A stretch of DNA of 64,000 nucleotides from Elusimicrobia bacterium UBA5214 (lineage in GTDB: Bacteria > Elusimicrobiota > UBA5214): NCBI GenBank assembly GCA_002412545.1, contig DHVG01000002.1, positions 241,872-305,871 of the forward strand, read 5' to 3'. The notes below the pieces were generated by a model, which had not been told where the DNA came from, ran no database searches, and saw only the letters and a list, made by a program, of their open reading frames with translations. The translations under genes were made by a program, and so were the position numbers. Positions 10,143 through 39,190 of the stretch are shown one piece after another. Within the stretch, counting starts at the first letter, position 1; every line of letters begins with the position of its first letter.

Positions 10143-10160
10143 TTTTCTCTCCTTGTGCTA

Positions 10161-23430: not shown

Positions 23431-23930
23431 CTTAATACCTCCTAGTACCAAGCACCAAATTCCAAGTTCCAAATAGCAAACAATAGTTAAATATCAAATA
23501 CAAAATGTCAAACTTATTTTGTTTTCTCAAGAATTTTACTAAATATTTTTATAAACTCACTTGCTTCTTTAATTAGTAATTCTCTCTCTGTTTCATCATT
23601 GTTATCCTTTATCTCCACCAATTTTAACCAGTATCTGCTTTCCTTAGATTCTTTTCGACATATCTTTATTCGCAAGGCAAAATCTTTTTTGCTTAATGCT
23701 TCATTTGCTTCAATATAATTTGCACCAACTGAACCAGATGCTATTTCAATATTAGCCATTGTTTTAGGCAGTTTCTTTGTAAATTCTATTACTCGTTTTG
23801 CGAACTCAAATGTTCTTTCTTCAAGGTCATAATGTTTTGAATTTGCAATTTGAACATTAGATATTGTTTGGGATTTGGAGTTTGGAGCTTGCAATTTACT
23901 GTTGTTAATTATATTCACAGTTGTATTTTT
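23431..23930 (-). mobile_element. Palindromic repeat element carrying the four-helix-bundle gene as cargo (candidate)
   Basis: Flank 23440-23513 (CCAAATTCCAAGTTCCAAATAGCAAACAAT...) and flank 23835-23925 (GTTTTGAATTTGCAATTTGA...TTGGGATTTGGAGTTTGGAG) are mutually complementary in word content. Both flanks recur without the ORF at 33690-33876. Confidence 0.45.
23514..23918 (-). CDS. Four-helix-bundle protein (23S rRNA intervening-sequence protein / Avd-like family)
   Basis: YDLEERTFEFAKRVIEFTKKLP...SGSVGANYIEANEALSKKDFALRIKICRKESKESRYWLKLV matches the family pattern. The first ~30 codons translate low-complexity repeat DNA. Confidence 0.8.
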   Translation of the reverse strand: MNIINNSKLQAPNSKSQTISNVQIANSKHYDLEERTFEFAKRVIEFTKKLPKTMANIEIASGSVGANYIEANEALSKKDFALRIKICRKESKESRYWLKLVEIKDNNDETERELLIKEASEFIKIFSKILEKTK

Positions 23931-26312
23931 TCATCGCTGATATCGCTTTATATTGAAGTGGGCGATGATTGCTTGGCCGAGAGAGACACCCCCGTCATTA
24001 CAAGGAACTTTTTTCTGGTAGTAAACCTTGAAATTATTTTTCTCTAAAAGAGCAACTGTTCTTTTCATTAAGTATAAATTCTGGAATACCCCACCGCTTA
24101 AGCAAACAGTATTTATTCCTCTATTTTGCAATATTTTTTTACAAAGTTCAAGAATAACCTGAGCAATGGTATTATGGAATCTTGCGGAAATTATTCCTTT
24201 ACTTGTTCCTCTCTTGAGGTGATTACCTCTCAAGTCATCTAAGACACAGGCAAAAATTGATAATTGGTCAAGAATGTATTTGCCATCAATAGATTTTATT
24301 TCAAATGGGTAACTACCCTCTTCTTTTTCATCAGTAACCATTTCTAATTCCATTGCTGCTTGGGCATCATAGTTTACTTCTTTTCTTATCCCTAAAAGAG
24401 CCGAGACCGCATCAAAAAATCGTCCACAACTGGATGTAAGCGGGGAATTAAAACCGCTTTTTAATTGAGCAATGGTTGCTTGGATTTCGTTTTCTTTTAA
24501 CCCTTTGCCTAGTGTTTCGGGTAAAGGTTCATTCAAACTATGCAGATAAGCAATGGCTATGCGGTAAGGTTTTTTGATTGCCAGTTCACCACCGGGCAGA
24601 GGTAGATAGGAAAAATGTCCTACGCGTTCAAAATCTTCGTAGTCGGCGAGAAGGAATTCGCCACCCCAGATTTTACCATCAGTTCCGTAACCGGTGCCGT
24701 CAAAAGCAACTCCGATGACTTTGGAATTAGGTAATTCATTTTCCAGCATACAACTGGCGATATGAGCGTGATGGTGCTGGACAGCAACAGTAGCGAGTAG
24801 CGAGTAGAGAGTAGAGAGTTCTAAAGCGTATTTGGTGGAGAAGTAGTCCGGATGGAGGTCGTAGGCGATAATTTTTGGGTTGACCCGAAAAAGTTTTTTG
24901 TAAAGTTTTAAAGTATTCTCAAAATGTTCCAGTGTTTCTAAATTTTCCATATCCCCGATATGTTGGCTGATGAAGGCATATTTTTCTTTGGTCAGACAGA
25001 AAGTATTTTTCAAGTCCGGACCAGTAGCAAGAATTTCTTCTACTTTAAAAGGCAGGCGTATGGGGTAAGGAGCATAACTTCTTGCCCGACGCAGAATTTG
25101 TGCCCCGTGATTAAAGACTCGGGTTACTGAATCATCGTATCTTGAATAAATATCACGGTTATGAAGCAGAAAATAGTCGGCAATGTTTTTTAACCGTCTT
25201 AATGCTTCTTCGTTTTCCATGGCGATTGGTTCTTCGCTGAGATTACCGCTGGTCATTACTAAACAATTGGTAATTGGTGATTGGTAATTGGTAATTGGGT
25301 GAAACAACAGATGGTGGAGGGGAGTGTAGGGGAGCATTACTCCTTGATATTTCTGGTAAGGAGCGACAAATCTGGAAATAGAAGAACCAGCTTTTTCTCC
25401 GAGTAAAACAATTGGTCGTTGGGGAGAAAGCAGTAATTTTGTTTCTTCCGCGGAAAGAAAACAATATTTTTTTATCGTTTCCAAGTCCGGCATCATTAAA
25501 GCGAATGGTTTATCCCGGCGCAGTTTTCTTTTCCGTAATTCTTTTACTGCCCGGTCATTAAGGGCATCACAAGCAAGATGGAATCCGCCTAATCCTTTAA
25601 GTGCAACAATTTTTCCCTCTTTAAGTAATTTGATTGTTTTCTCAATTGCCTTCTCACCTTTTATTGGCTCAATAAATTGAGCCGCTACATTATTTTTTTC
25701 ACCTTTTCCTAAACTCTTAGCCCTTAGCTCTAAGTTCTGAACTAATTCTACTTCCGGTCCACATTGCGGGCAAGCGTTAGGTTGGGCATGAAAACGCCGA
25801 TTTGCCGGGTCATCATATTCTTCTTGACATTCCGGACACATTTTAAAAGAACGCATTGTCGTTTTCGGTCGGTCGTAAGGTATATCTTCAATAATTGTGA
25901 ACCGTGGACCACAATTGGTACAATTGATGAAAGGGTAACGGTAGCGCCGGTCTTTTGGGTCAAAAAGTTCTTTTAAACAGTCATTACAGGTAGCAATATC
26001 CGGTGAGACGGGCTGGAATTCTTTTTCTATAGCGATACTTTCTTTGATTACAAAATTTATGTAGTTTTTCGGTTTAATATTTTCAACTGCTATGGAATCA
26101 ATTTTTGCTGCCGGTGGGGGAGATGTCTTTAATTCCTTAAGAAATGATTCCAGCGATTTTTTTTCTCCCACGATTTCAAAGATTACCCCTTGAGAAGTGT
26201 TACATACCCAACCTTTAAGATTATTTTTTTTCGCAATTCGGTAAACGAAGGGACGGAATCCGACACCCTGAACAATACCTTTTACCGTTATTCTCTGATA
26301 CTTCCTATTCAT
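23931..26312 (-). CDS. hypF: Carbamoyltransferase HypF
   Basis: Acylphosphatase-like N-terminus (VKGIVQGVGFRPFVY), two CxxC...CxxC zinc-finger pairs, YrdC-like and Kae1-like domains, and VQHHHAHIAS. Confidence 0.95.
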   Translation of the reverse strand: MNRKYQRITVKGIVQGVGFRPFVYRIAKKNNLKGWVCNTSQGVIFEIVGEKKSLESFLKELKTSPPPAAKIDSIAVENIKPKNYINFVIKESIAIEKEFQPVSPDIATCNDCLKELFDPKDRRYRYPFINCTNCGPRFTIIEDIPYDRPKTTMRSFKMCPECQEEYDDPANRRFHAQPNACPQCGPEVELVQNLELRAKSLGKGEKNNVAAQFIEPIKGEKAIEKTIKLLKEGKIVALKGLGGFHLACDALNDRAVKELRKRKLRRDKPFALMMPDLETIKKYCFLSAEETKLLLSPQRPIVLLGEKAGSSISRFVAPYQKYQGVMLPYTPLHHLLFHPITNYQSPITNCLVMTSGNLSEEPIAMENEEALRRLKNIADYFLLHNRDIYSRYDDSVTRVFNHGAQILRRARSYAPYPIRLPFKVEEILATGPDLKNTFCLTKEKYAFISQHIGDMENLETLEHFENTLKLYKKLFRVNPKIIAYDLHPDYFSTKYALELSTLYSLLATVAVQHHHAHIASCMLENELPNSKVIGVAFDGTGYGTDGKIWGGEFLLADYEDFERVGHFSYLPLPGGELAIKKPYRIAIAYLHSLNEPLPETLGKGLKENEIQATIAQLKSGFNSPLTSSCGRFFDAVSALLGIRKEVNYDAQAAMELEMVTDEKEEGSYPFEIKSIDGKYILDQLSIFACVLDDLRGNHLKRGTSKGIISARFHNTIAQVILELCKKILQNRGINTVCLSGGVFQNLYLMKRTVALLEKNNFKVYYQKKVPCNDGGVSLGQAIIAHFNIKRYQR
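24789..24818. repeat. In-frame heptamer array AGTAGCG x2, AGTAGAG x2 inside hypF
   Basis: Encodes LSTLYSLLAT just before the conserved VQHHHAH. Same word family as the reverse complement of 10208-10238. Confidence 0.7.
25267..25301. repeat. In-frame heptamer array TTGGTAA/TTGGTGA x5 inside hypF
   Basis: Encodes PITNYQSPITN. A 33-nt stretch is identical except for one base to 32325-32357 in an unrelated gene. Confidence 0.8.
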
Positions 26313-26457
26313 CTAATTTTAAAATTACAAATCCCAAATTCCAAACAATTTCTAAATTCAAATGTTCAAGATCCCAAACTATTTTGATCATTTAAGTTTA
26401 AACTACTCAAATTTATTTGGAATTTGGTGCTTGAGATTTAGGATTTGCTTTCGCGGG
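26313..26457. repeat. ORF-less palindromic AATTCCAAA/TTTGGAATT element between hypF and hypA
   Basis: Shares CAAATTCCAAACAATTTCTAAATTCAAATGTTC with 10948-10990 and ATTTGGTGCTTG with 33850-33862. Confidence 0.65.
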
Positions 26458-26802
26458 TTAATCTTCACCTTCAAGATGGTCAATATATATTTCGGTGCCA
26501 GCAATAATTTCTAAATTTTCATTTCCGCAGGAATTACATTTTGCTACGGTAATATTTTCATATTCTTGGTTACATTTTGGACAACGGAAACGGACTTTTT
26601 CTTGAACGATTTCCAATTCCGCCCCTTCAGCTAATGTTCCCGGGAAACGATGGTCAATTAAACTATGTTCAAGCAGTTCTTCTTCTACACCTGCTTGTTC
26701 ACCAACCTTTATTCTAATTTTGGTAATTTTCTTCAGGTTATTTTTCTTCGCCAGTTCTTCAATATTTTTAAATATTTCTTCGGCAAGACCTAATTCGTGC
26801 AT
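26458..26802 (-). CDS. hypA: Hydrogenase nickel-insertion protein HypA
   Basis: MHE N-terminus and CPKC...CNSCG zinc site. Starts 30 nt after the nuoN stop. Confidence 0.92.
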   Translation of the reverse strand: MHELGLAEEIFKNIEELAKKNNLKKITKIRIKVGEQAGVEEELLEHSLIDHRFPGTLAEGAELEIVQEKVRFRCPKCNQEYENITVAKCNSCGNENLEIIAGTEIYIDHLEGED

Positions 26803-26832
26803 TGGAGATTTTTACCTTTTGTAATGATATTT

Positions 26833-28353
26833 TTATTTAAGAAAAGTAATTGCTTCTTGTGCTAAGTTAGCGAAAGGTGAAGGATACAAACCGATAAAAA
26901 TTATTACCAGAAGGACGATAACTACCGCGGTGGTCAAGAAGGGGGAAAAGTAACTTTTCTTTACCGTGGGATTTACTTCTCGTAAACCCCGTAAAGAATT
27001 ATACGGGGCACGAGACTTTTCGTCTAAAGTAAGATTTGCTGTTTCCGTCTTTACTGAATACATTTGTTGGATAATTTTGAAATAATAAGAAAGAGAAAAA
27101 ACGCTATTCAACACACCGACTACTGCTAACCAGGTGTAACCACTGCGTACCGCTGCACTGAATAAATAGAGTTTACCCATAAATCCGGCTAACGGTGGTA
27201 CACCGGCTAAAGAAAGTAAAAAGAAAACCATAGTTACAGCAAAGAAAGGAAACCTTTGGTTGAATCCAGCAAAATCTTCTATCAATTCACCTTCTTTAGA
27301 GTTAGCGATGACAATCGCAAAAACACCAAGATTAGCGAAAAGATAAACAAAAAGGTAAAAAAGCATACTTGAAAGTGCTAACCTATCCGCAACTGCTAAA
27401 CCAACTAAAAGATAGCCAGTATGAGCAATACTTGAGTAAGCAAGCATCCGTTTAACATTCTGCTGCATTAAAGCCAAGAGATTACCTACGGTCATACTTG
27501 CTACTGAAAGGAGAGCAAAGATGGTCATCCATTGTAATTTAAACGGAGAAAAAATGGTAAGAAATATTCTTAGAATAATAGCAAAACCAGCAATTTTTGG
27601 TCCGACCGAAAGATAAGCAGTAACCGGTGTTGGTGCACCTTCATAAGCATCAGGTAGACGGAAATGGAATGGCACAGCAGCAATTTTTATTCCCAAACCA
27701 AAAATAACGAAACTCATGGAGAGAAAAATAAGTGGTTGCTCAAGAAGGAATAATTTCTTTGCCATTTCTTGAAGATTTGTTGTTCCGGTAAGACCGTAAA
27801 GGAAAGAAAAACCATAGAGCATCGTTACCGAACCTAAAATACCTAAAAGAAAATACTTTACTGCTCCTTCGGTTGATTTAGGATTATTCCTATCTAACCC
27901 AGCTAAAATATAAGTAGGGATAGAGCATAATTCCAAAGCAATGTAAATGCTGACGAGGTCGTTAGCACTGATAACAAAAAATGTCCCGATAAGAGATAAA
28001 AAGAGTAAAATATAATATTCATTTTGATACCTACTCTGCTGGAAGAAGTCAGCAGAAATCAGAACAACTAATAATCCAGTAAACAGAATTGGTAAGCGTA
28101 AAAAAAGAGTCAATTCATCAATACTAAATATTCTTTGGAGGGAAACAAATCCCAGATTAATGAATTGTAAAGAAATGACTAAAGAAACGATAAGTCCAAT
28201 TAGTCCCAAATATATAGAGGTGGTAATTCCTTGAAATGATTCTTCTTCTTTGGAGAAGAATACCATCCGTAAGAGTAGATACAAGGTTGTAATGACTACA
28301 GTTATTTCCGGAAGATAGACAAAAGAATCCAAATCAAATATTCCAATTTTCAT
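26833..28353 (-). CDS. nuoN: NADH-quinone oxidoreductase subunit N-like antiporter subunit
   Basis: Proton-antiporter M-family fold (KRMLAYSSIAHTGY). Terminal position after the L and M homologs. Confidence 0.8.
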   Translation of the reverse strand: MKIGIFDLDSFVYLPEITVVITTLYLLLRMVFFSKEEESFQGITTSIYLGLIGLIVSLVISLQFINLGFVSLQRIFSIDELTLFLRLPILFTGLLVVLISADFFQQSRYQNEYYILLFLSLIGTFFVISANDLVSIYIALELCSIPTYILAGLDRNNPKSTEGAVKYFLLGILGSVTMLYGFSFLYGLTGTTNLQEMAKKLFLLEQPLIFLSMSFVIFGLGIKIAAVPFHFRLPDAYEGAPTPVTAYLSVGPKIAGFAIILRIFLTIFSPFKLQWMTIFALLSVASMTVGNLLALMQQNVKRMLAYSSIAHTGYLLVGLAVADRLALSSMLFYLFVYLFANLGVFAIVIANSKEGELIEDFAGFNQRFPFFAVTMVFFLLSLAGVPPLAGFMGKLYLFSAAVRSGYTWLAVVGVLNSVFSLSYYFKIIQQMYSVKTETANLTLDEKSRAPYNSLRGLREVNPTVKKSYFSPFLTTAVVIVLLVIIFIGLYPSPFANLAQEAITFLK

Positions 28354-28368
28354 ATTACTATTTTTTCA

Positions 28369-29907
28369 TCATTTAACGACGATTTCCAATAAAGATGTAA
28401 CCGCTGGATTGATAAAATTCAAAATTGGTGCCGGGTAAAGTCCAAGAATCAGAACAATCACCATCAAAGGGATGAAAACAATCCATTCTCTTAGAGTTAA
28501 TCCACCAGGACCTTTATAATTTCCTTGACCCAGTTGGAGAAGGTTAATCCGAATAATCAGACGCAGAAAATAAATTATCGTTAGAATCATACCCGGGATG
28601 ACTAGAATGATAAGAATTTTGCTTAGCCAAGTAGATTGAAAAACTCCTAACAAAACCATAAATTCGTTAATGAAATTACTTAATCCGGGTAAGCCCAGTG
28701 CGGTTAGGGCGGCAAAAGTCAATATCCCGCTTAGAGAAGGTAACCAGAAAGATGTTCCCTCAAGTTCTTTTATTTCCCAGGTTTGTCTTCTTTCACTGAT
28801 TACACTACTTGAGAGAAAGAGCAGACCAATAATTATCCCGTGATTAAACATTCCTAAGACGGCACCGTTTAGACCACTTACCGTACCTGCAGCAATACCC
28901 AAAATGATATACCCCATATGACTTAAACTTGAATAAGCAATTAACCTTTTTAAATCTTTTTGAGCCATTGCTACTATTGCGCCATAGACGATGTTTACTA
29001 TTCCCAGAATTGCCAAAGGGGTGGCAAATAGTCGTAAAGCATCAGGTAATATTGGTAAGACAATCCGGATAAATCCGTAAGTCCCCATCTTTGCTAGTAT
29101 TCCTGCGAGAAATACGCTTCCGGCAATTGGTGCTTCAGTATAAGCATCGGGTAACCAGGTATGAAAAGGGAATAGTGGCACCTTAAAGGCAAAGCCAATA
29201 AATAAAGCAAGAAAAAATAAAGCTTGAAGATTAAGAGGGAACTTACATCTTGCGATATCCAAAATACTGAAAGTATTCAATCTCGCTGAAAAATACATTC
29301 CAAGAATTCCAATGAGCATAATTACACTACCAAAAAGTGTATAAAGAAGAAACTTTAACGCTGCATATTCTTTTCTTGGTCCACCCCAGATACTAATCAG
29401 GAAATACATTGGTACAAGAACCCATTCCCAAAAAATATAGAAGAGGATAAAGTCAAGAGCAAGAAATAAACCGAGTGCACCGGTTTCAAGGAGAAGCAAA
29501 AGGATAAAAAATGCTTTTACCCGATACGCAAGATTCCAGGAGAAAACTACTACCAATAAGCCGAGGAGCGAACCTAAAAATAACAAAGGAAGACTTATGC
29601 CATCAACCCCTAAGTGATATTCAATCCCCACATTCTTAATCCAAGTATACCTTTCTACGAATTGCATACTTGTATTGCTGTCGGTCAGCACCGACTTGCT
29701 GTCGGTCAGCACCGACTTGCTGTCGGTCAGTACCGACTTGCGGTAATCAAAATTTGTCACCACAAAAAGAGTAAGAAGAAATACTGCACAAGTAATAGAA
29801 AGAGAAACGAATTTGATTTCCTTTTCTTTCCTTCCGGAAATTAAGAGGATAAGAATTACACCGAAAATAGGTAAAAGAATGATTGAAGATAAAATAGGTA
29901 AATTCAT
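28369..29907 (-). CDS. nuoM: NADH-quinone oxidoreductase subunit M-like antiporter subunit
   Basis: HTWLPDAYTEAP and KRLIAYSSLSHMGY blocks. Carries an in-frame 3 x 7-aa tandem repeat near the N-terminus. Confidence 0.8.
   Translation of the reverse strand: MNLPILSSIILLPIFGVILILLISGRKEKEIKFVSLSITCAVFLLTLFVVTNFDYRKSVLTDSKSVLTDSKSVLTDSNTSMQFVERYTWIKNVGIEYHLGVDGISLPLLFLGSLLGLLVVVFSWNLAYRVKAFFILLLLLETGALGLFLALDFILFYIFWEWVLVPMYFLISIWGGPRKEYAALKFLLYTLFGSVIMLIGILGMYFSARLNTFSILDIARCKFPLNLQALFFLALFIGFAFKVPLFPFHTWLPDAYTEAPIAGSVFLAGILAKMGTYGFIRIVLPILPDALRLFATPLAILGIVNIVYGAIVAMAQKDLKRLIAYSSLSHMGYIILGIAAGTVSGLNGAVLGMFNHGIIIGLLFLSSSVISERRQTWEIKELEGTSFWLPSLSGILTFAALTALGLPGLSNFINEFMVLLGVFQSTWLSKILIILVIPGMILTIIYFLRLIIRINLLQLGQGNYKGPGGLTLREWIVFIPLMVIVLILGLYPAPILNFINPAVTSLLEIVVK
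29677..29739. repeat. In-frame 21-nt x 3 tandem repeat inside the nuoM-like gene
   Basis: GCTGTCGGTCAGCACCGACTT x3 (one C-to-T change in the last copy) encodes SVLTDSK x3. Each unit contains the inverted pair GTCGGT/ACCGAC. Confidence 0.9.
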
Positions 29908-29910
29908 TTC

Positions 29911-31830
29911 TTACCAGATTAATAAAAGTATAAGAATTACTACCAGTAAACCAACAAAGATTGCTCCCGCGTAGTTTTGCACATAACCGGTCTGTATCTT
30001 TCTTAGTTTTTTGCTTAAGTTGACTATAGAAGAACCAATTCTATTCGCCGCTCCATCAATAACTTCTTTATCAAAAAGATTAACTCTTTCGCTTGTTTCC
30101 ACGATTATCCCGCCACCATTTTTAATCATTTTTTCCACCCGTCCTTCTTCAGCAGTTATCCCCCACGATTCACGGGCGTAAGGGATAAGTTTCTCTATTG
30201 CTAAAGTGTAAGCAGTATCAACTTTAGCGATTAAACTTCGGCATAACCAGATGGAAAAATAAGCAATCTTCCTATAGAAATAGTCAAAATCCAAAGTAAA
30301 GAGTTCATGAGGGGCGAAATATTCCCGGGAAAGGAAGAAAATCAGTAAAGTAACAAGGTAAATTTGTGCCGCACCAACGAGGTTGTGCCCAGAATAAAAG
30401 TGCAGTTCTTCTAAAGGATAAGGAAGAATACTGATTACAAATTTGGGATATATTCCCGTGAGCAAACAGAGAAACGCAACAACAAGCATTGGAATTTGCA
30501 TATTCCAGGGTACTTCTCTAATTTGTGAATAGGTGGATAAGTGGTTAAGTGATTTGTTCTGTCGGAGGAAACCAAAATAGGTAAATTTTAAGAAAGAGAG
30601 CCAGGTACCGACACTGGCAAGTTTAAGAAGCAAATAGACCGTATAATTATGATTATGATGTGCCGCTTCACTGATAATCGTCTTACTGATAAAACCGTTA
30701 AATAGAGGAATCCCGGCAATAGATAGTGAAGCGACTACCGCAGTAATTGTTGTAACCGGCATTCTTTTTGCTAACTGTCCAAGATTACTTAACCTCTCCT
30801 CACCAAGACGATAAATTACTGCCCCGGCAGACATAAAGAGCAGTCCTTTATAAAGAATGTGGTGTAAAGCATGGGCAAGTCCGGCGTTTACACCGAGGTC
30901 GCTACCGAGACCAATTGCGGCAACCATATAACCAACCTGACTGATAATATGGTAGGAAAGAAGTTTACGCATACTGTTTTGCATCAAGGCGAAAGTTACA
31001 CCATAGATTGCCATCAGTGCACCCATATAAGCAACAAAGTTGACCCCGGGGAATAACCGCGCTAAAGCATAGACCGCAGTTTTTGTCGTGTAGACCGACA
31101 TCAAGACACTTGCCGTAAAAGGTGCTTTCGGATAAGCATCTGGTAGCCAGGTATGTAAAAGTATAAAAGCGGCATTTACACCAACCCCGAGCAGAATGAG
31201 AATAAAAGATAATTTTGTTGTCGGTGTAATAAGTAAAAATGAAGCGGGGTCACCAAAAGAGAAAGGCTTCGCCCCGAGGCTCAGCCCGAGGGGACGGTAA
31301 GTAAACTCAATAATTATTCCCGCAAGCAAAAGAAGTCCACCAATGAGGTGAAATATTAAGTAGCGATAACCGGCTTTTAATGATTCCTCTTCACGCTTCA
31401 GCCAGATAAGGAATGTCGGGGCAAGTGCCATTATTTCCCAGAAGATGAAGAAGGTCAAATAATCACCAGCAAATAATACACCTAAGGATGAACCGATATA
31501 AAGAAATGAAAAGACAAAAAATAAATCATCTTCTATTTTGAAAGCATAAATTATGATGAGAAAACCAATCAAAACAAAAATGTAACCCATAAACAAATTC
31601 ATTTTGTCAACATAAAAGAAGATTAATGGTAAATCAAATAGACGAGAAAATTTTACTGTTTGTGGTTTAAGAAGGAAAGTTATAAATAAAGCAAGTAGAG
31701 GTGTAAGAATAATGAAAACCTTACTCAAGGTTTGCTTCCGAGTATGACTTAAGTCCAATGTTTCTCGTTGGCAAACTTTTAAGAATACTAAAATTACTGC
31801 ACCAAAAAGATAAATCAACCCGGGATGCAT
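29911..31830 (-). CDS. nuoL: NADH-quinone oxidoreductase subunit L-like subunit (with C-terminal lateral-helix/anchor region)
   Basis: Antiporter core (HTWLPDAYPKAP, LLSYHIISQVGYM) plus the C-terminal FDKEVIDGAANRIG...LRKIQTGYVQNYAGAIFVGLLVV and a final TM helix. Confidence 0.8.
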   Translation of the reverse strand: MHPGLIYLFGAVILVFLKVCQRETLDLSHTRKQTLSKVFIILTPLLALFITFLLKPQTVKFSRLFDLPLIFFYVDKMNLFMGYIFVLIGFLIIIYAFKIEDDLFFVFSFLYIGSSLGVLFAGDYLTFFIFWEIMALAPTFLIWLKREEESLKAGYRYLIFHLIGGLLLLAGIIIEFTYRPLGLSLGAKPFSFGDPASFLLITPTTKLSFILILLGVGVNAAFILLHTWLPDAYPKAPFTASVLMSVYTTKTAVYALARLFPGVNFVAYMGALMAIYGVTFALMQNSMRKLLSYHIISQVGYMVAAIGLGSDLGVNAGLAHALHHILYKGLLFMSAGAVIYRLGEERLSNLGQLAKRMPVTTITAVVASLSIAGIPLFNGFISKTIISEAAHHNHNYTVYLLLKLASVGTWLSFLKFTYFGFLRQNKSLNHLSTYSQIREVPWNMQIPMLVVAFLCLLTGIYPKFVISILPYPLEELHFYSGHNLVGAAQIYLVTLLIFFLSREYFAPHELFTLDFDYFYRKIAYFSIWLCRSLIAKVDTAYTLAIEKLIPYARESWGITAEEGRVEKMIKNGGGIIVETSERVNLFDKEVIDGAANRIGSSIVNLSKKLRKIQTGYVQNYAGAIFVGLLVVILILLLIW

Positions 31831-31843
31831 CTTTTTCTCCTAT

Positions 31844-32146
31844 TTATGACTTTTGGTCCGAGGTTACATCGGACTTGATAGAATGTTTTTGTTCTTCAAT
31901 AAAATGAGACAAAACCTGAATTACAAAAATAAAATATAAACAACCAAAAATTGCAAGAAATATTTGGTAACCAGGTAGAATTTGCCACCATGGTTCAATT
32001 TGAAGGTTCACCTCTTCAGCAATTTTTTCTATTGCATAAACCCGGTTAGAATTTAACCCAATAAATAATATCAACTTCCAGAGGAAACTTAAAATCCTAA
32101 AAGGTACATACTTTCGTAACATTCTGACCGGGTAAAGATTAAGCAT
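31844..32146 (-). CDS. Small two-TM membrane protein, unknown function
   Basis: ORF embedded co-directionally between antiporter genes with short gaps. Two hydrophobic segments. No recognised family. Confidence 0.4.
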   Translation of the reverse strand: MLNLYPVRMLRKYVPFRILSFLWKLILFIGLNSNRVYAIEKIAEEVNLQIEPWWQILPGYQIFLAIFGCLYFIFVIQVLSHFIEEQKHSIKSDVTSDQKS

Positions 32147-32182
32147 TTGTTTTTCCTTTAAAATATTTTATGTTTACGGCGA

Positions 32183-33679
32183 TTACCTAAAAAAAGTTTC
32201 ACTAATCTGCCGAGTTAAATTCAATAACAATTTTGGATAAATTCCAAAAAATATAGTACACGCTGCAAGCAGAATTAAGGGTATTGCCATAAAGAAATTA
32301 GGGTCAACATTCTTTTGGTAATTGGTGGTTGGTAATTGGTAATTGGTAATCGGAGCAAACCAACCATTGTAAACGATTGGACCATAGTAAATCAAGTTCA
32401 TCAGGCTGCTTAAGAGAAGTATCCCTAAAGCAATTAAACCAGCGGTAGAACTGTAGTAGCCGATTTTTTCTGCTTCAAGAGTACCTAAAGCTAAGTACCA
32501 CTTACTAACGAAACCGTTTAAAGAAGGGAAACCAATCATTGAAAAAGCAAAAAGAGTGAAACAGAGTGTGACAAGGGGCATTCGTTTTCCGATACCACTG
32601 AGGTCTTTAATTTCGCGTAAACCAGTTTGATGAATAAATGTTCCTGCACAGAGAAATAAGCCACCTTTTATAATCGCATGGTTAAAGATATGAATTATTC
32701 CACCAGTTAAACTTAAAGGAGTAATTAAAACTAATCCAAGAATTATATAACCCATCTGGGAAATACTTGAGTACGCAAGCATTTTTTTTATTTCTGTCTG
32801 GGCAATTGCTACCGCTGAACCAAGAAGAATAGTAATTAAAGAAATAACAAACAAACTCGTCAATAACCAAGAATGTGTATAAAAAGATTCCCAGCCAAAA
32901 ACATTATAAATTGTCCTTAAAATTCCATAGCCACCAGCTTTAATCATAATTCCTGAAAGCAAAGCGCTTGCTGGTGAAGGAGCAATTGGATGTGCTTTCG
33001 GTAACCAGACATGTAGAGGAAAGAGACCGGCTTTTATTCCAAAACCAATAATATACCCCCAGAAGATATAAGGCATTAAAGGATGTTCTTTCAAACCCAT
33101 TCCGATGAGGTGAAGTTCTCCGGTATTAGTAATGGCGTAAGTAGCGATTACCGAGAGGAGGAGAATCAATCCCCCGGCGATACCAAGAAAAAGATAGAGG
33201 GTGCCAGCTCGAATTGCTTCTAAAGATTCCTCGTGGATAACTAAAACATAAGCGGCAATCGTAAGAAATTCAAAGAAAATGTATAAAGTCAAAAGGTTAC
33301 CACTAAAAGCCACACCAAGCATTCCCGTAAGTGAAAGTAAAGAAAAAAGGTTATAGCGACCCAGTTCCAAAGTTTCCCGACCCATATATTCAATACTGTA
33401 AATACTTGCTAACATCCAGAGGAATGCACTGATTAAACCAATAAGGAAACTGAGTGCATCCACACGTAGATAAAGATTTATTCCGATTCCCGGGTTCCAC
33501 ATTCCCGAGGTAACAACTTCATTTGCTCTAATCTTTGGATAAAGTGAAACCGTAGCAAAAAAACAGAGAAGACAAACTAATGCTACGAAGAAACTGCTTT
33601 TTCCTCGTTTTGTTTTTTCTATCTGAGGAACGAGAAAAGCAGAAAAAAAAGGTAAAAAAACAATCAATACTGGTAACAT
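32183..33679 (-). CDS. MrpD/NuoM-like antiporter subunit (extra copy, paralog of 44409-45959)
   Basis: HVWLPKAHPIAPSPASALLSG and KKMLAYSSISQMGY. Long stretches are shared with the 516-aa Mrp-cluster gene. Confidence 0.85.
   Translation of the reverse strand: MLPVLIVFLPFFSAFLVPQIEKTKRGKSSFFVALVCLLCFFATVSLYPKIRANEVVTSGMWNPGIGINLYLRVDALSFLIGLISAFLWMLASIYSIEYMGRETLELGRYNLFSLLSLTGMLGVAFSGNLLTLYIFFEFLTIAAYVLVIHEESLEAIRAGTLYLFLGIAGGLILLLSVIATYAITNTGELHLIGMGLKEHPLMPYIFWGYIIGFGIKAGLFPLHVWLPKAHPIAPSPASALLSGIMIKAGGYGILRTIYNVFGWESFYTHSWLLTSLFVISLITILLGSAVAIAQTEIKKMLAYSSISQMGYIILGLVLITPLSLTGGIIHIFNHAIIKGGLFLCAGTFIHQTGLREIKDLSGIGKRMPLVTLCFTLFAFSMIGFPSLNGFVSKWYLALGTLEAEKIGYYSSTAGLIALGILLLSSLMNLIYYGPIVYNGWFAPITNYQLPTTNYQKNVDPNFFMAIPLILLAACTIFFGIYPKLLLNLTRQISETFFR
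32325..32359. repeat. In-frame heptamer array TTGGTAA/TTGGTGG x5 inside an MrpD-like gene
   Basis: Encodes PITNYQLPTTNYQ in the loop before the last TM helix. See 25267-25301. Confidence 0.8.
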
Positions 33680-33689
33680 CCCAATTTCT

Positions 33690-33876
33690 CCCTAAAATAC
33701 CAAATCTCAAATTCCAAATAACAAACAATATTTAAGTTTTAAACTCCAAATTTCAAACATTAAGGTTCTCTCTTCTAAGTCATAGTGTTTTGAATTTGGA
33801 ATTTGAGTATTAGATATTGTTTGTAATTTGTGGTTTGGAGATTGTGATTTGGTGCTTGGAACTTGTAATTTATCCA
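33690..33876. repeat. Deletion derivative of the four-helix-bundle element between two MrpD-like genes
   Basis: 33775-33860 aligns with 23826-23900 (GTCATAnTGTTTTGAATTTGnAATTTGAnnATTAGATATTGTTTG...). 33700-33760 aligns with 23450-23513. About 375 bp of ORF are missing. Confidence 0.7.
33707..33876 (-). pseudogene. Remnant of a four-helix-bundle gene (N-terminal ~36 codons only) inside a repeat element
   Basis: Translates to ...LQVPSTKSQSPNHKLQTISNTQIPNSKHYDLEERT, which parallels NSKLQAPNSKSQTISNVQIANSKHYDLEERT of the intact gene at 23514-23918. It then breaks off. Confidence 0.6.
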
Positions 33877-35376
33877 TTATTTGAAGAACTCCGCTACTAT
33901 TGCTTTCGCTAAAATATGTGGTGCTCCTCCCCAAATACCAAAAATCAATGAAATAAATGCTACCGTTAAAATTGGAATAAGCATACTTAATCGTAATTCC
34001 AATTTCAGATTGCCGATTTCAGATTGCAGATTTTTGGAATTAGGAATTAGAAATTTGGAATTTGCAATCTCCGATTTAAAATAGGCGTAAACGATTGGGG
34101 GAAGAAAAAAACCCAACTCAATGAAACTACTTAAAAGATAGATAAAAACAAAACCGAATTGTCCGAGAGTAAAATATGTCTTTACTAAATAGAATTTACT
34201 TACCCAGCCAGCTACCGGTGGTAAGCCAACAATTCCCCAGGCACCGATAGCAAAAGCAAAACAGGTTAAAGGCATAAATTTTGCTAACCCAGCCATTTCT
34301 TTAATCATACTTTTACCAGTTTGTTTAATAATTGCTCCTGCAGTATAAAACAAAGTTATTTTCATAAATGAATGATAAACAAAATGGAGCAATGCGGCAA
34401 ATAAACCTAATGGATTAGCCGAAGCGGCACCAAGAATAACAAAACTTAACTGGTTTATTGTTGAATAGGCAAGCATTCTTTTTATTTTTGTCTGCCGTAG
34501 GGCGGTAAATGCGGCGATGAGGATAGTAATTGATGCCCAAATACCTAAGACCAAATTTAAATTTAACTGACGGAATAAATCTGCACCGAAAACGCAGTAA
34601 ATTGTGCGAATAATCCCAAAGAGTCCCACTTTAACTACGGCAACCGCATGAAGTAACGCACTAATTGGTGTAGGTGCAATCATCGCTCGTGGCAACCACG
34701 AATGTAAAGGCATTAATGTTGACTTAAATCCAAAGCCGAGCATAAACAAAATAAACAGTAGATAAAGTGTATTTCTATTTTGACCACCTAATTCAGAAAT
34801 ACCAGTGGGAGTAAAACTAATATTGCCACCGGTTAGTTTATAGGTTAAAAATATAGCGAAAAGGAGCGTCAACCCACCAGTGAGAAGATAAACAAAATAG
34901 ATTACTCCGGCACGGAATGCTTCTTCAGTTTCTTCATGAATTACCAGTGGATAGACGACATAAGTTAAAAGTTCATAAAAAATAAACAAAGTTAATAAAT
35001 TAGCGGCAAAGACTATTCCTAATGTAGCAGTAAGTGCAAAAGTTAGACAGGCAAAATAGCGTGTCTGCTGATGTTCTCCGGACATATAACCAAATGAATA
35101 AAGTTCAGTGAAAATCCATAAGAAACTTACTAATAAACCCATAAAGAGACCAAATTTGTCAACTTGAAATTGTAATACAAAAAGTGGTGTTTCTACAAGA
35201 GTGAAAGATGGATAAATACCAGCAAGGACTCCCTTGGTAATCCTTAAAACAAGAATAAAATCAAATAAACAGGTAAGAATAATAATACCGTTCCGCAAAG
35301 ATTTATTTCTTTCTCCAATAAGAATAATAAAAATTGTTGCTAAAACAGGAGTAAGTAGAGAAAATAGTATTAACAT
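33877..35376 (-). CDS. MrpD/NuoN-like antiporter subunit (extra copy, paralog of 46709-48205)
   Basis: HSWLPRAMIAPTPISALLHA and KRMLAYSTINQLSF. About 90 of 139 residues are identical to the 498-aa Mrp-cluster gene in a hand-compared N-terminal stretch. Confidence 0.85.
   Translation of the reverse strand: MLILFSLLTPVLATIFIILIGERNKSLRNGIIILTCLFDFILVLRITKGVLAGIYPSFTLVETPLFVLQFQVDKFGLFMGLLVSFLWIFTELYSFGYMSGEHQQTRYFACLTFALTATLGIVFAANLLTLFIFYELLTYVVYPLVIHEETEEAFRAGVIYFVYLLTGGLTLLFAIFLTYKLTGGNISFTPTGISELGGQNRNTLYLLFILFMLGFGFKSTLMPLHSWLPRAMIAPTPISALLHAVAVVKVGLFGIIRTIYCVFGADLFRQLNLNLVLGIWASITILIAAFTALRQTKIKRMLAYSTINQLSFVILGAASANPLGLFAALLHFVYHSFMKITLFYTAGAIIKQTGKSMIKEMAGLAKFMPLTCFAFAIGAWGIVGLPPVAGWVSKFYLVKTYFTLGQFGFVFIYLLSSFIELGFFLPPIVYAYFKSEIANSKFLIPNSKNLQSEIGNLKLELRLSMLIPILTVAFISLIFGIWGGAPHILAKAIVAEFFK
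33995..34077. repeat. In-frame heptamer arrays (NNNGATT x4, then TTNGNAA x5) inside an MrpD-like gene
   Basis: Encodes SEIANSKFLIPNSKNLQSEIGNLKLE in the loop before the last TM helix. AATTCCAAA word family. Confidence 0.75.
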
Positions 35377-35686: not shown

Positions 35687-36192
35687 TTCTTCTCCTCCCG
35701 AGTTAAAATTGCTACTCCTACGATAGTGGAGAGAAAAATTAATGATAGTAATTCAATTACGATTAAATAATTGCCAAAAATTAGTTTAGCAAAAGAAATA
35801 ATTTCTCTTGGTTGAGGAAAGATAAATTTAGTGCTCAGCACAAGAAAAGTTACCATAAAGACAAAAAGTAAAAGCCCACCTAAAGAGAAAACAATTAATA
35901 AAGCCGGTATTTTCTGTTCGCTACTTTGTTTTTCTTGTGGGTCAGCAATATTTGGTGTAAGCATTATTCCAAAAAGAACCAGCACAACCACTCCGCCAAC
36001 ATAAAGAAGGATTTGACTTGCAGCAACAAAATGTGCGTTAAGATGGAAATATAATCCCCCGATAGTGAAAAAAAACAATCCTAAAGCAAGCACATTACGG
36101 AAAAGATTTTTACCACTTACTACAACTAAAGCACTAATTACTGTAATGAGAGCAAAAAAATAAAAACTAACTGCATGAATTATTTTAGCCAT
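35683..36192 (-). CDS. nuoJ: NADH-quinone oxidoreductase subunit J
   Basis: Size, TM pattern and position between I and K. The VAASQILLYVGGVVVLVLF block is typical. Confidence 0.85.
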   Translation of the reverse strand: MAKIIHAVSFYFFALITVISALVVVSGKNLFRNVLALGLFFFTIGGLYFHLNAHFVAASQILLYVGGVVVLVLFGIMLTPNIADPQEKQSSEQKIPALLIVFSLGGLLLFVFMVTFLVLSTKFIFPQPREIISFAKLIFGNYLIVIELLSLIFLSTIVGVAILTREEKN

Positions 36193-38116
36193 CTGATTTT
36201 CTAAGCATTTTTTCTATCTGGTAAAAGATTTTTTCACGACTGTATTCGCCTAATTCATATTCTTTACTCATCACTAAAGTCTTGGTTGGACATTGTTCGG
36301 CACACAATCCACAGAACATACATTTGCTGATATCAAAATCATAAATGGTAACTTTCCTTTCCGGACTGCCTGCCGGTGTTCGTTCTACATGGATTGCATA
36401 GACCGGGCAGGTGCGTTCACAGAAACGACAACCAACACAAATCCAAGAATGACAACGCAAACATCTTTCCGCTTCTAATAGGGCTGATTCAGGAGGTAAA
36501 GTTTTTTCAATTTCCGTAAAATTAGTTTTTCTTATTTCTGGAGATAAAAGTGGTATTTTTTTTCTTAATCTTTCCTCTTCAATATTAACAAGGTCAACTG
36601 GTGGGTATTGGTATTTAAGTGCTACCGGTGGGAGGCGGTTTGCTTTCAAATCTTCACCACTTAAATAACGGTCAATAGATACTGCCGCCTGATGTCCAGA
36701 AGCAATTGAACCAACCGCTGAACCCGGACCAGTAACAATTTCACCTGAGACAAAAACACCTGAGACACTTGTTTCTTGAGTAATTTTATCAAAAACAATC
36801 TGCCCACGTTCGGTTAACTCTACACCACTGTCTTTCAGGAGAGATAAATCCGCTGCTTGTCCAATTGCAACAATTACCGTATCCCCTTCAATAGTGGTTG
36901 TTACCTCTTTATTAAACTTAGGATTAAATCTTCCGGCATCATCAAAAACACGGACGCATTCTTCTACTTCTAAACCGTTGACTCGTCCATTTTTACCTTC
37001 GAGAAATCTTTTTGGACCCCAAGAACAATGGATTTTTATTCCTTCTTCTAATGCTTCTTCAATTTCCCAACAGTATGCAGGCATTTCTTTTTTTGCTTCC
37101 AAGCAGACCATAATTACTTCCTTTGCACCAAGTCGTAAAGCACAACGTGCCACATCAACTGCTACATTCCCGCCCCCGATAACAATTACTCTTTTCCCAA
37201 GGTCAGTTTTTTCACCAAAATTTGCCGCATAAAGAAAAGGTAAAGCAAGCAATATACCTTTAAATTCTGCTCCTGGGATTGGCAAACTGCGACTTACTTG
37301 TAAACCAGCGGCAATAAGTAAAGCATCATATTTCCTTCTTAGTTCATTAAAAGATATATCTTTACCAATTTCTATTCCAGTTTTAATTTCAAAACCACTT
37401 TTTGCTAATTCATTTGTCTCTTCAGCAAGTATTTCCCGTGGGAGACGATATTTGGGAATCGTACTATAAAGTTGTCCACCCGGTGCTTGGCGTTTTTCAA
37501 AGATAGTTACTTGGTAACCAGATTTTGTTAAATCGTAAGCAGCGGCTACCCCCGATGGTCCGGAACCAATAATGCCGACTTTCCCATATTTTGTTACCCG
37601 TTTTCCGTTTTCCGTTTTCCGTTTTTTATTTTTGAAATATGCTTCCGCAATTACCCGATGGAGGACGCGTATTGAAATACTTTCGTCATAATAATTTCTC
37701 TTGCAGGCAGTTTCACAAGGATGATGACAAATTCTGCCTAATACTGCGGGGTAAATATTCCTTTCTCGGACTAGTAAATATGCTTCTTCGTAATTTCCTT
37801 CCGCAATAAGTGCATTTTGTCCACGGGCATCAACATTTGCTGGACAGGAACTTGTGCAAGGTGCTAATTTATCCGCATTCAATTTTTCGTTGACTAAGAA
37901 ATCGTAACTTGAAAATTCTGGATTTAAGTATTCAAGTTCAGTTTCACCCATTACATTTTTTAATTTCAATGCTCCCCGGTAGCGTTCCGGTAATTCCCAG
38001 CGCTCGTCAGGATACTGCATCGTTACCGCTCGACGGAAGAGATATTTCATACTGATACTCATCCCGGTAAAAATACTTTTGAAAGCATTGAAAAAATTAG
38101 TTATTTTCTCAGTCAT
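36185..38116 (-). CDS. nuoI: NuoI (2x[4Fe-4S] subunit) interrupted by a GltD/SudA-like NAD(P)H-FAD oxidoreductase module
   Basis: N-terminus KYLFRRAVTMQYPDERWELPERYRGALKL and C-terminus CLRCHSWICVGCRFCERTCP...CMFCGLCAEQCPTKTL are the NuoI parts. The residues between (~60-530) carry CTSSCPANVD, CHHPCETACKR, GIIGSGPSGVAAAYDL, VIVIGGGNVAVDVARCA and VFVSGEIVTG. Confidence 0.85.
   Translation of the reverse strand: MTEKITNFFNAFKSIFTGMSISMKYLFRRAVTMQYPDERWELPERYRGALKLKNVMGETELEYLNPEFSSYDFLVNEKLNADKLAPCTSSCPANVDARGQNALIAEGNYEEAYLLVRERNIYPAVLGRICHHPCETACKRNYYDESISIRVLHRVIAEAYFKNKKRKTENGKRVTKYGKVGIIGSGPSGVAAAYDLTKSGYQVTIFEKRQAPGGQLYSTIPKYRLPREILAEETNELAKSGFEIKTGIEIGKDISFNELRRKYDALLIAAGLQVSRSLPIPGAEFKGILLALPFLYAANFGEKTDLGKRVIVIGGGNVAVDVARCALRLGAKEVIMVCLEAKKEMPAYCWEIEEALEEGIKIHCSWGPKRFLEGKNGRVNGLEVEECVRVFDDAGRFNPKFNKEVTTTIEGDTVIVAIGQAADLSLLKDSGVELTERGQIVFDKITQETSVSGVFVSGEIVTGPGSAVGSIASGHQAAVSIDRYLSGEDLKANRLPPVALKYQYPPVDLVNIEEERLRKKIPLLSPEIRKTNFTEIEKTLPPESALLEAERCLRCHSWICVGCRFCERTCPVYAIHVERTPAGSPERKVTIYDFDISKCMFCGLCAEQCPTKTLVMSKEYELGEYSREKIFYQIEKMLRKSDG
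37608..37635. repeat. In-frame CCGTTTT x4 array inside nuoI-gltD
   Basis: Encodes KRKTENGKRV immediately before the FAD-binding GIIGSGPSG fold. Confidence 0.8.
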
Positions 38117-39144: not shown

Positions 39145-39190
39145 CTAATTACCTAATTACCCAATCACCCAATTAACCAATTCACTAACT
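39145..39190. repeat. Octamer array (CTAATTAC/CCAATCAC/CCAATTAA)
   Basis: Reverse-complement word family of the GGTAATTGG arrays at 1944, 25267 and 32325. Confidence 0.7.

Follow-up and report, generated by a model that had tools for sequence, protein, structure and literature searches.

The closest described relatives of the repeats considered here are the STRR heptanucleotides of filamentous cyanobacteria, also termed heptameric long simple-sequence repeats in the part of PMC4692102 that cites Mazel 1990 and Mrazek 2007. Direct repeats of TAACTGA are known from Beggiatoaceae, cyanobacteria, and Bacteroidetes (MacGregor 2015, PMC4679880). Four- and five-unit heptanucleotide elements, also intragenic, have been described in Geobacter metallireducens (PMC2700814), and GGGAATC/GGGGAYT heptamer repeats in Xanthomonas and Nostoc (PMC4692102). 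With the Geobacter, Xanthomonas, and Nostoc families our arrays share 4-5 tandem heptamers at dozens of intergenic sites; those families, however, are G-rich, with a proposed G-quadruplex or regulatory role and one unit per genome, whereas the arrays here are AT-rich and diverse. Two further systems with which the locus can be compared are the Rickettsia palindromic elements (RPEs), which are dispersed and 100-150 bp long, and the phase-variable simple-sequence contingency loci of Haemophilus, Neisseria, and Campylobacter.

The window, that is, the whole 64-kb stretch of DNA analyzed, does not come from a cyanobacterium, a difference from the STRR hosts that is taxonomic rather than mechanistic. 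It has a GC content of 36.9%, no HIP1 sites, and a gene for a V-type ATPase B subunit; outside its own clade, the ribosomal protein S1 finds no match above 51% identity, as befits a deep-branching uncultured lineage, and its nearest named matches (42-48% identical) are from Elusimicrobiota, Muiribacteriota, and Poribacteria. An earlier note on this DNA had reported the same heptamer array in frame in hypF and in an MrpD-like gene, and the sequence, the ORFs, and TRF all bear this out. The features concerned are as follows.

23931-26312, minus strand: hypF (carbamoyltransferase HypF, 793 aa), which contains two heptamer arrays as well as a small palindromic insert
25265-25299, minus strand: hypF site-1 array, coding strand CCAATTA x ~5 with one CCAATCA, encoding PITNYQSPITN at HypF residues ~339-349
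24789-24819, minus strand: hypF site-2 array, coding strand CTCTCTA/CTCGCTA x 4.4, encoding LSTLYSLLAT
32183-33679, minus strand: MrpD/NuoN-like antiporter subunit (Mrp/Nuo-type, 498 aa; Pfam Proton_antipo_M, 2.8e-62)
32315-32350, minus strand: antiporter array, coding strand (G)ATTACC AATTACC AATTACC AACCACC AATTACC, encoding PITNYQLPTTNYQ

The string TTGGTAATTGGTGATTGGTAATTGGTAATTGGG lies at exactly 25267-25299 in hypF, where it had been placed before; its near-identical counterpart in the antiporter-like gene, TTGGTAATTGGTGGTTGGTAATTGGTAATTGGT, lies at 32315-32347, the coordinates given earlier (32325-32357) being 10 nt too high. The two differ, as had been said, at a single base over the first 32 nt (position 14, A versus G). 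In both arrays the variant unit is the second on the plus strand, a placement that would also fit copying. By TRF, both have a period of 7, with copy numbers of 4.9 and 5.1 and matches of 92% and 86%, and their lengths are 33-36 nt. Both host ORFs are long and on the minus strand, and their translations include HPITNYQSPITNC and APITNYQLPTTNYQK; read on that strand both arrays give PITNYQ-type peptides, and the PITNYQSPITN attributed to the hypF array is seen in the translation. The word TTGGTAATTGGT, with at most one mismatch, occurs 11 times against 0.87 expected, a count reached in none of 100 shuffles. The similarity of the hypF and antiporter arrays ends at the array edges, with no common flanks, terminal repeats, or target duplications, and when the two are aligned as DNA their codon phases are 1 nt apart. 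DNA folding gave no hairpin potential for either (-1.9 and 0 kcal/mol; z-scores, +0.30 and +1.35). Both arrays are identical in GCA_003530275.1 (contig DPTL01000179.1; here L131), an independent public assembly that represents the same organism.

The hypF ORF has the Acylphosphatase, zf-HYPF, Sua5_yciO_yrdC, HypF_C, and HypF_C_2 domains, all of them HypF domains in Pfam, and its product matches PDB 3VTH at E 1e-239. In an AF2 model, site 1 is a low-confidence coil between helix 331-337 and strand 351-355 (pLDDT below 50 at residues 342-346; mean of 57 over block 341-350). It is 7 aa longer than in PDB 3VTH and 21 nt longer than the common 31-nt spacer, and the spacer ranges from 31 to 58 nt across metagenomes. 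The antiporter array lies in the loop preceding the last TM helix, which measures 0 to about 60 aa in homologues and which, in the outgroup L130, lacks an array and is 6 aa shorter than in the window. Both arrays sit, as the earlier note said, in segments whose length varies in the HypF and antiporter alignments, and each is an addition specific to the lineage when set against distant homologues. The idea that additions come in multiples of 21 nt did not survive: the arrays measure 33-36 nt, the inserts are +7 and +6 aa, and orthologues differ in length by 3 nt.

The two arrays belong to a larger set. TRF finds 17 period-7 tandem arrays with 13 canonical units in the window; 7 fall within real ORFs, and the other 10 lie in the little of the window that is non-coding. 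Besides hypF, in which the window shows two array sites and relatives add a third, three other genes in the 64 kb carry arrays.

34002-34068, minus strand: two adjacent arrays, ATTTCAG x4.6 and TTTGGAA x5.1 (plus-strand units), in the homologous pre-last-TM loop of a paralogous antiporter gene (33877-35376)
37598-37625, minus strand: perfect (CCGTTTT)4 in a GltD-like/NuoI-like oxidoreductase ORF (36185-38116)
23866-23891, minus strand: GTTTGGA x3.7 in ORF 23514-23918; syntenic loci have a PDDEXK_3 gene there
1944-1978, intergenic: period-8 array GGTGATTG x4.4, a TTGGTGA relative one base longer
39147-39182, intergenic: period-8 array AATTACCC x4.5 between nuoD-like and nuoH-like genes, with the nuoH-like start codon about 8 nt downstream of its end
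10160-10232, intergenic: period-7 arrays ACTAACC x7.4 and ACTGTCT x3.4
1236-1301, 10936-10965, 11035-11072, 23455-23474, 33695-33725, 40304-40328, and 50484-50510, intergenic: further period-7 arrays (TRF)

Heptamer arrays of about 4-5 units are numerous in this lineage, both between and inside genes, and their units belong to a restricted vocabulary. Every genic array is stop-free on the coding strand, and such arrays occur only in the orientation in which all three reading phases are stop-free; the orientation is forced because TTGGTAA contains TAA, so that only TTACCAA is translatable. The arrays at 1944 and 39147 (39145 in the earlier note) had been named as kin of the genic pair, and they are indeed real, intergenic, and of the same repeat class, but their period is 8, each unit being a heptamer plus one extra G/C.

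The vocabulary is narrow enough to be visible within the window: 3.7% of array pairs have identical units and 9.6% are one step apart, compared to 0.2% and 2.5% for random AT-rich heptamers. From base composition alone, two stop-free arrays should share a unit about once in 1000 cases, which for the 21 genic pairs amounts to an expectation of ~0.02; it is therefore an empirically restricted vocabulary that has to carry the coincidence. Arrays of TTGGTAA/TTGGTGA occur at no fewer than 120 loci in other genomes, mostly of filamentous cyanobacteria among the matches listed, and are abundant there in Microcoleus, Dolichospermum, Rivularia, Tolypothrix, and other genera, with WOR-3, Calditrichia, and Anaerolineae MAGs also among the matches listed; the scan pattern had RR at the variant unit and so also matched pure TTGGTAA arrays, and the variant units among the matches listed were GA in 11 cases and AG in 5. 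Nine of 138 TTGGTAA-type arrays among these matches are in frame in conserved proteins (among them histidine kinases, an FMN dehydrogenase, RsmG, and an ABC ATPase), where they read LPITNYQ. A genome-specific "flavor" of unit, as ectopic homogenization might leave, was considered and rejected, the within- and between-genome distances being equal at 2.79 (permutation p = 0.49) in what is a small data set. In the sister genome L001, three sites have three different units.

In all this the arrays resemble the STRR repeats, which likewise are direct tandem 7-nt units, with many arrays per genome, several units, and mostly intergenic positions. They differ in that 7 of 17 lie in frame in conserved enzymes, and orthologous persistence and unit turnover are documented here. 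The TAACTGA repeats are also mainly intergenic, with ORF copies only in the reverse, stop-free orientation, read as the 7-aa periodic peptide LSVISYQ. However, the window unit TTGGTAA/TTACCAA is not of that family; TCAGTTA appears only in the hypF orthologue L124, where the site-1 unit CAGTTAT equals TCAGTTA and reads QLSVISHQLSV. In BOGUAY, moreover, the TAACTGA system has one dominant unit, and its copies in ORFs fall mainly in hypothetical proteins or at the ends of proteins, whereas here there are many units, in arrays internal to well-conserved enzymes and at positions conserved across species. The arrays are of the heptanucleotide class known from cyanobacteria and are probably not a recently inserted mobile element.

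The age of the arrays can be judged from orthologues in five or six metagenome genomes of relatives, which have a heptamer array in the same loop but with another unit. Orthologues that share 75-82% amino acid identity already have heptamer arrays at these sites, built from other units but spanning an unchanged anchor-to-anchor length. At HypF site 1, the units are CCAATTA in the window, CCACTCA in L001, CCAGTCA in L126, CAACTAT in L125, and CAGTTAT in L124; the peptides by orthologue are PITNYQS, SHSPLTA, QSPVTSH, QLSTINY, and QLSVISH, and 4 of 6 orthologues measure 27 aa between the anchors. At site 2, all six have an array and all measure 26 aa from anchor to anchor, again with differing units. 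In the antiporter loop, the units are AATTACC (window), GATTACA/AATTACA (L128), AACTACA (L001), and CAGTTAA (L129). Lag-7 identity inside arrays is 0.71-0.96, and the mean identity between orthologous arrays is 0.53-0.68, to be compared with about 75% nucleotide identity over the whole gene, a pattern that marks concerted evolution. A distant HypF (L183; 46% identical, 56% GC) has an independently acquired CCCTTCACCCCTCA array at site 1.

By sequence comparison, then, array presence and loop length are kept among the orthologues while the unit differs by lineage, which argues that the arrays are old; they would predate the clade and have turned over in place. An ancestral array kept in strict register was rejected, since flank-anchored phases, read at site 1 from the aligned sequences, differ by 1-3 nt among orthologues. 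The claim is therefore limited to a conserved site and length, and pure whole-unit slippage is insufficient; compensated indels or re-seeding must also occur. At each site the closest relatives lack the array: at hypF site 1, L123 has instead an inverted-repeat insert that is GC-rich, and L127 has no antiporter array and a truncated antiporter. Arrays are therefore replaced at times. Among the assemblies and samples compared, no length polymorphism was seen of the kind that would show slippage directly.

These comparisons speak against a recent insertion of a single 33-nt cassette, given that orthologue arrays have the same site and length, other units, and unshared flanks. What remains of the proposal that the intergenic repeat system also colonizes ORFs is the common repeat class, not a recent mobile insertion, and the suggested alignment of orthologues points the same way: distant homologues lack the segment, in keeping with an addition, but related orthologues have arrays rather than empty sites. 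The analogy drawn with RPEs falls for similar reasons, the arrays being direct tandem repeats without a hairpin and the orthologous sites being filled by arrays of equal length. Common to both systems is that repeat-derived in-frame sequence is tolerated at permissive surface positions of conserved proteins; the arrays here, however, are 33-36 nt of direct repeats with no fold and no element ends, and they evolve locally. A closer RPE analogue than the heptamer arrays is a 45-nt palindrome-bearing insert with direct-repeat flanks in hypF, at about 25640-25700. It was rejected as a dispersed family: with up to 3 mismatches allowed, the window has no second copy of its palindrome, GGCTCAATnnATTGAGCC.

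It seems probable that hypF and the antiporter gene each have a long-resident heptanucleotide microsatellite of the STRR/LSSR type, separate from the other and placed where a loop of the protein is structurally permissive. On this reading, replication slippage or unequal exchange would homogenize the units inside each array, possibly with compensated frameshifts, which an array open in all three frames could tolerate, while selection would keep the loop length and the reading frame. The likeness between the hypF and antiporter arrays would reflect a shared favored unit, TTACCAA, the usual number of about 5 units, and a common A-to-G variant unit; a restricted vocabulary, this length, and the stop-codon rule on orientation would account for their near-identity. 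We infer that they were not copied as a single cassette.

An unlikely alternative is that, once the nearest relatives had split off, both loops were re-seeded from one recent source, by way of a small mobile repeat cassette (RPE/MITE/SDR-like) or of ectopic gene conversion among a genome's own heptamer arrays. One difference over 32 nt, with the variant unit equally placed, is what copying would leave, and a shared unit is unexpected on composition (about 1 in 1000 per pair). L123 and L127 have no array at the respective site, so the window arrays could be young, and small inserts flanked by direct repeats, such as the 45-nt one, do exist in hypF. The arrays, however, are not palindromic, and their edges bound the similarity, with no flanks, terminal repeats, or target duplications shared; other orthologues have arrays of the same length at the same site, with units chained by one or two substitutions. 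Nor is there a difference between within- and between-genome unit similarity (2.79 versus 2.79, p = 0.49), the L001 units differ at all three sites, and the codon phases of the aligned arrays differ.

We give rather little credence to a wider reading. An active process, for which templated break repair and ectopic conversion are candidates, would write or re-homogenize arrays of 4-5 units from a small preferred vocabulary; arrays in essential genes would persist over long evolutionary times, switch unit in concert, and might be reversible frameshift switches for hydrogenase maturation and antiporter-like modules, and the process would extend to other heptamer-rich bacteria.

Switching could also be proposed in its own right, with slippage by plus or minus one unit acting within the population as a reversible on-off control of HypF (hydrogenase maturation) and of an antiporter-like module. 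A non-triplet unit inside coding sequence, where one slip shifts the frame, is the architecture of phase-variable contingency loci; near-perfect arrays have been maintained over long times, and the independent contig breaks exactly at a hypF array, as heterogeneous repeats might cause. Nevertheless, we regard this as improbable. With 4-5 units, the arrays are short for slippage to be efficient, the hosts are housekeeping enzymes rather than surface or restriction functions, and multiple arrays per gene raise the chance of an off state. No length variant was seen in the assemblies compared: the two from the window organism are identical at both arrays, and the array of the sister organism is identical in JGI samples L185 and L193 and in a Logan (SRA-run) contig, with the same protein.

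It is very improbable that the product itself is selected, whether as a PITNYQ-type linker or as an mRNA or DNA site for a heptamer-recognizing protein (e.g., Csp/S1-like). The conserved loop length of orthologues, the intergenic relatives near start codons (e.g., 39147-39182), and the translational role proposed for TAACTGA repeats (PMC4679880) would fit such a function, but there is no protein-level conservation, because the site-1 peptide changes completely between orthologues; the unit changes too, leaving no fixed nucleic acid motif, and distant homologues work without the segment. That an assembly or sequencing artifact made one low-complexity string twice is hardly credible: repeats may be assembled wrongly, and L131 has N-gaps and a contig end that coincides exactly with the hypF site-2 array, but long ORFs stay open through both arrays, the independent assembly is identical at both, and same-site arrays are found in orthologues from different samples and pipelines.

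In metagenome-assembled genomes, such arrays have the practical effect of contig breaks, as in L131, which ends at one, and of truncated gene calls; in protein alignments, they appear as spurious PITNYQ-type peptides. Coding DNA is normally purged of repeats with a unit length not divisible by three. At this locus, in a host outside the cyanobacteria, heptamer arrays are kept in frame at fixed loops of conserved enzymes, and across five or six related genomes the array length is kept while the unit has changed in concert. The locus thereby offers a clean comparative system for how arrays are generated and homogenized, by slippage, conversion, or re-seeding, and for the related question of why the same few units recur across phyla.

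In the window are 17 period-7 tandem arrays, each with 2.8 copies or more, and 13 distinct canonical units among them; 10 are intergenic, and 7 lie in real genes, as follows.

23931-26312, minus strand: hypF, a long ORF of 793 aa with the complete HypF domain set; two arrays, at 25265-25299 (site 1) and 24789-24819 (site 2)
32183-33679, minus strand: antiporter gene, a long ORF of 498 aa encoding a Proton_antipo_M protein; one array
33877-35376: paralogous antiporter; two adjoining arrays at 34002-34068, in the loop homologous to that of the antiporter above
37598-37625: perfect (CCGTTTT)4 in a GltD/NuoI-like oxidoreductase
23514-23918: ORF with one array

Two of these, hypF site 1 and the antiporter loop, share the unit TTGGTAA/TTACCAA. 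The hypF string lies exactly where an earlier note had placed it (25267-25299), and the single base difference between the two strings over the first 32 nt was confirmed; the second, TTGGTAATTGGTGGTTGGTAATTGGTAATTGGT, spans 32315-32347, which is 10 nt lower than the 32325-32357 reported. Tandem Repeats Finder (TRF) recovers both arrays as period 7, with 4.9 and 5.1 copies, and they encode HPITNYQSPITNC and APITNYQLPTTNYQK, respectively. Allowing up to one mismatch, the window has 11 copies of the word TTGGTAATTGGT where 0.87 would be expected, and none of 100 shuffles gave as many. A second public assembly of this organism, independent of the first (L131; GCA_003530275.1, DPTL01000179.1), is identical to the window across both arrays; at the assembly level, this answers the concern that the strings might not survive resequencing. 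Neither array folds (DNA minimum free energies of -1.9 and 0 kcal/mol, with positive z-scores), and they are direct microsatellites rather than palindromic elements; the proposed analogy with Rickettsia palindromic elements (RPEs) fails on palindromy, size, and element structure.

Reading frame constrains such arrays in a simple way. A 7-nt unit has no factor in common with the codon, so any stretch of at least three units passes through every phase; as TTGGTAA contains TAA, translation is open only to its complement, TTACCAA. Every genic array in the window has a stop-free coding strand, and the common orientation of the two focal arrays is thus forced. MacGregor described the same forced orientation for TAACTGA repeats, which occur in ORFs in reverse orientation only (PMC4679880).

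The claim that the HypF array occupies a variable segment was borne out: it is a lineage-specific addition in a permissive loop, since the spacer before LVMTSGN is short in distant HypF proteins (31 nt in most metagenome matches, 58 nt at most), PDB 3VTH is 7 aa shorter at this site, and an AF2 model renders the array peptide as a low-confidence coil between helix 331-337 and strand 351-355 (pLDDT below 50 for residues 342-346; mean of 57 over block 341-350). The expectation of a recent insertion did not hold, as none of five close HypF orthologs (75 to 82% aa identity) has an empty site. Instead, the unit changes from one genome to the next (coding strand).

Window: CCAATTA x5
L001 (sister genome): CCACTCA x4
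L126: CCAGTCA x5
L125: CAACTAT x4
L124: CAGTTAT/CAGTCAT x5, the reverse of TAACTGA
L123: no heptamers; a G/C-rich inverted-repeat insert in place

Four of the six measure 27 aa from anchor to anchor. At site 2, all six orthologs measure 26 aa and each has a heptamer array, with units including CTCTCTA/CTCGCTA, CTATCAA, CTTGCAA, and CTCGTTA. In L123 (2790-2900, ortholog P0001), site 1 is a 36-aa segment from the inverted repeat CCCTCCCCACCTGCGGGGAAGGGTAGGGTGAGGGG, which suggests that a small palindromic element took the place of the array or went into it. An array of CCCTTCACCCCTCA x2.3, a heptamer pair, was gained independently in the same pre-LVMTSGN loop of a HypF only 46% identical (L183:10699-10730; Ga0209697_10001391, 56% GC), confirming site 1 as a tolerant landing or expansion spot.

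The antiporter loop behaves like the hypF sites.

Window: AATTACC
L128: GATTACA/AATTACA
L001: AACTACA
L129: CAGTTAA
L130 (outgroup, 67% identical): no array; loop shorter by 6 aa
L127 (closest relative, 86 to 87% aa identity): no heptamers; gene ends before the last TM helix

In L127 (1370-1480, ortholog P0122), the loop is GCGGATAACCGC-type sequence and an MbhD-like gene directly follows the early stop, suggesting that the array site has undergone a deletion or rearrangement.

These arrays are thus frame-compatible microsatellites that sit in permissive loops and keep their position and length but vary in unit. Identity at lag 7 within arrays is 0.71 to 0.96, whereas orthologous arrays average 0.53 to 0.68, below the value for the entire genes, roughly 75% nucleotide identity; arrays that are uniform inside but less alike from lineage to lineage bear the mark of concerted evolution. 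They are old at their sites, probably homogenized by a DNA-level process, and constrained in total length. We infer that slippage or unequal exchange inside the array homogenizes it, that compensated frameshifts are tolerated since no phase of the array contains a stop, and that purifying selection holds frame and loop length. The suggestion that multiples of 21 nt preserve the frame would fit single slippage events. The data differ: the arrays are 33 to 36 nt, the additions are 7 aa (relative to 3VTH), 21 nt (relative to the common 31-nt spacer), and 6 aa (antiporter relative to outgroup), and orthologs differ in length by 3 nt.

That leaves the likeness of the two focal arrays, taken in the earlier note as one inserted cassette. 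From base composition, two stop-free arrays would share a unit about once in 1000, or 0.02 times among 21 genic pairs. Units in use are far from random: 3.7% of array pairs in the window are identical and 9.6% are one substitution apart, compared to 0.2% and 2.5% for random AT-rich heptamers, and AAATTCC is present three times. Drawing on the vocabulary actually observed, the 21 pairs should include about 0.8 identical ones. Since arrays typically run to 4 or 5 units and A-to-G variant units are common, those on one unit are near-identical almost by construction. Ectopic conversion may also have contributed: the variant unit has the same position in both arrays, arrays are absent at both sites in the nearest relatives, and array phase relative to the flanks differs by 1 to 3 nt among orthologs, requiring more than whole-unit slippage. 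We nevertheless favor independent arrays over a copied cassette because there is no genome-specific unit flavor (distances within and between genomes are both 2.79; P = 0.49), the three sites in L001 each have a unit of their own, the flanks of the two arrays have nothing in common, and their codon phases are 1 nt apart when aligned as DNA. Phase variation of the host genes is possible in principle, but the two assemblies of the window organism show no length variant, nor does the sister organism, in which two JGI samples and a Logan contig for the same protein have an identical array.

Compared to window positions 24789-35363, the L131 contig ends exactly at the hypF site 2 array, with N-gaps at 33676-33814, an intergenic repeat region, and at three other junctions; repeats therefore fragment assemblies and shorten gene calls (HypF was called as 508 aa).

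Other repeats are present. The arrays at 1944-1978 and 39147-39182 are intergenic, as the earlier note stated, and kin to the focal unit, but they are period 8 (GGTGATTG and AATTACCC). In the mRNA sense they give repeated GGGUGA/GGGUAA words, one array ending about 8 nt upstream of a nuoH-like start codon, and they could be putative repeated Shine-Dalgarno-like sites; a translational role has been proposed for TAACTGA repeats (PMC4679880). On the minus strand of hypF, at 25640-25700, is an in-frame 45-nt insert, NNVAAQFIEPIKGEK, missing from L125, L001, and L124 and single-copy in the window. It contains a perfect 8-bp-stem palindrome, GGCTCAAT-AA-ATTGAGCC (25666-25683; DNA fold of -6.5 kcal/mol, z of -2.3), and is flanked by a 9-bp direct repeat, AAAAGGTGA, that resembles a target-site duplication; the ends of the insert are also present in L123, where an extra GC-rich insert is nested in the hairpin loop. 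This insert resembles RPE/MITE-like in-frame insertion more closely than the heptamer arrays do. In the antiporter-like ORF 28369-29907 (minus strand), positions 29675-29741 hold 3.2 copies (97% matches) of the 21-nt unit TTGCTGTCGGTCAGCACCGAC, each with an inverted repeat, GTCGGT...ACCGAC. The repeat encodes KSVLTDS x3, an exact 21-aa in-frame insertion missing from the L001 ortholog; it is distinct in type from the heptamers and obeys the 21-nt rule. The long imperfect 27/54/81/108-nt tandem repeat at 59193-59476, inside ORF 59123-61303, appears from the TRF consensus to encode Glu/Lys/Pro-rich repeats and is probably an ordinary low-complexity linker.

At 36.9% GC and lacking HIP1 sites, the window encodes a V-type ATPase B subunit, purA, purB, and rpsA. 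The closest relatives of S1 are metagenome proteins at 77, 75, 70, 69, and 60% identity, with all others at or below 51%; named matches, at 42 to 48%, are Elusimicrobiota, Endomicrobiales, Muiribacteriota, and Poribacteria. HypF and the antiporter share this pattern, which makes the host a deep-branching uncultured bacterium outside the cyanobacteria. Its complex-I-like module has many antiporter-like subunits: at 26833-49932, at least nine Proton_antipo_M (MrpD/NuoL/M/N-like) genes in two clusters flank NuoD-, NuoH-, and NuoI/GltD-like genes and adjoin hypA, hypF, hypC, and hypD. Such a gene content is unusual and resembles a complex-I or group-4-hydrogenase-like module in which antiporters are very numerous.

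Despite this host, the TTGGTAA/TTACCAA unit is common as a repeat in cyanobacteria. The focal pattern was found at 120 loci or more in a scan of species-representative genomes; among those listed, the majority are from Microcoleus, Dolichospermum, Rivularia, Tolypothrix, Microseira, and Richelia, and a few are from WOR-3, Calditrichia, Anaerolineae, Planctomycetota, and Bacteroidota MAGs, with TTGGTGA and TTGGTAG variants frequent inside the arrays. Nine of 138 perfect (TTACCAA) arrays of at least three units in the listed loci lie within long open frames resembling real proteins, including histidine kinases, an FMN-dependent dehydrogenase, an AMP-binding enzyme, an ABC ATPase, and RsmG, and every one reads LPITNYQ. 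Finding one array in frame in several unrelated genes is therefore a recurrent trait of heptamer-rich genomes, if little described.

The window arrays are not a new kind of element. They belong with the cyanobacterial STRR and heptameric LSSRs, a class already known (PMC4692102), and with the TAACTGA repeats (PMC4679880), and they share their class with the intragenic four-unit heptamer elements of Geobacter (PMC2700814). What is new is the host lineage outside the cyanobacteria, the high density of in-frame arrays in conserved enzymes, and an ortholog series that combines conservation of site and length with concerted turnover of the unit. For comparative work on how heptamer arrays arise, which is still unexplained, these arrays are thus a good handle.
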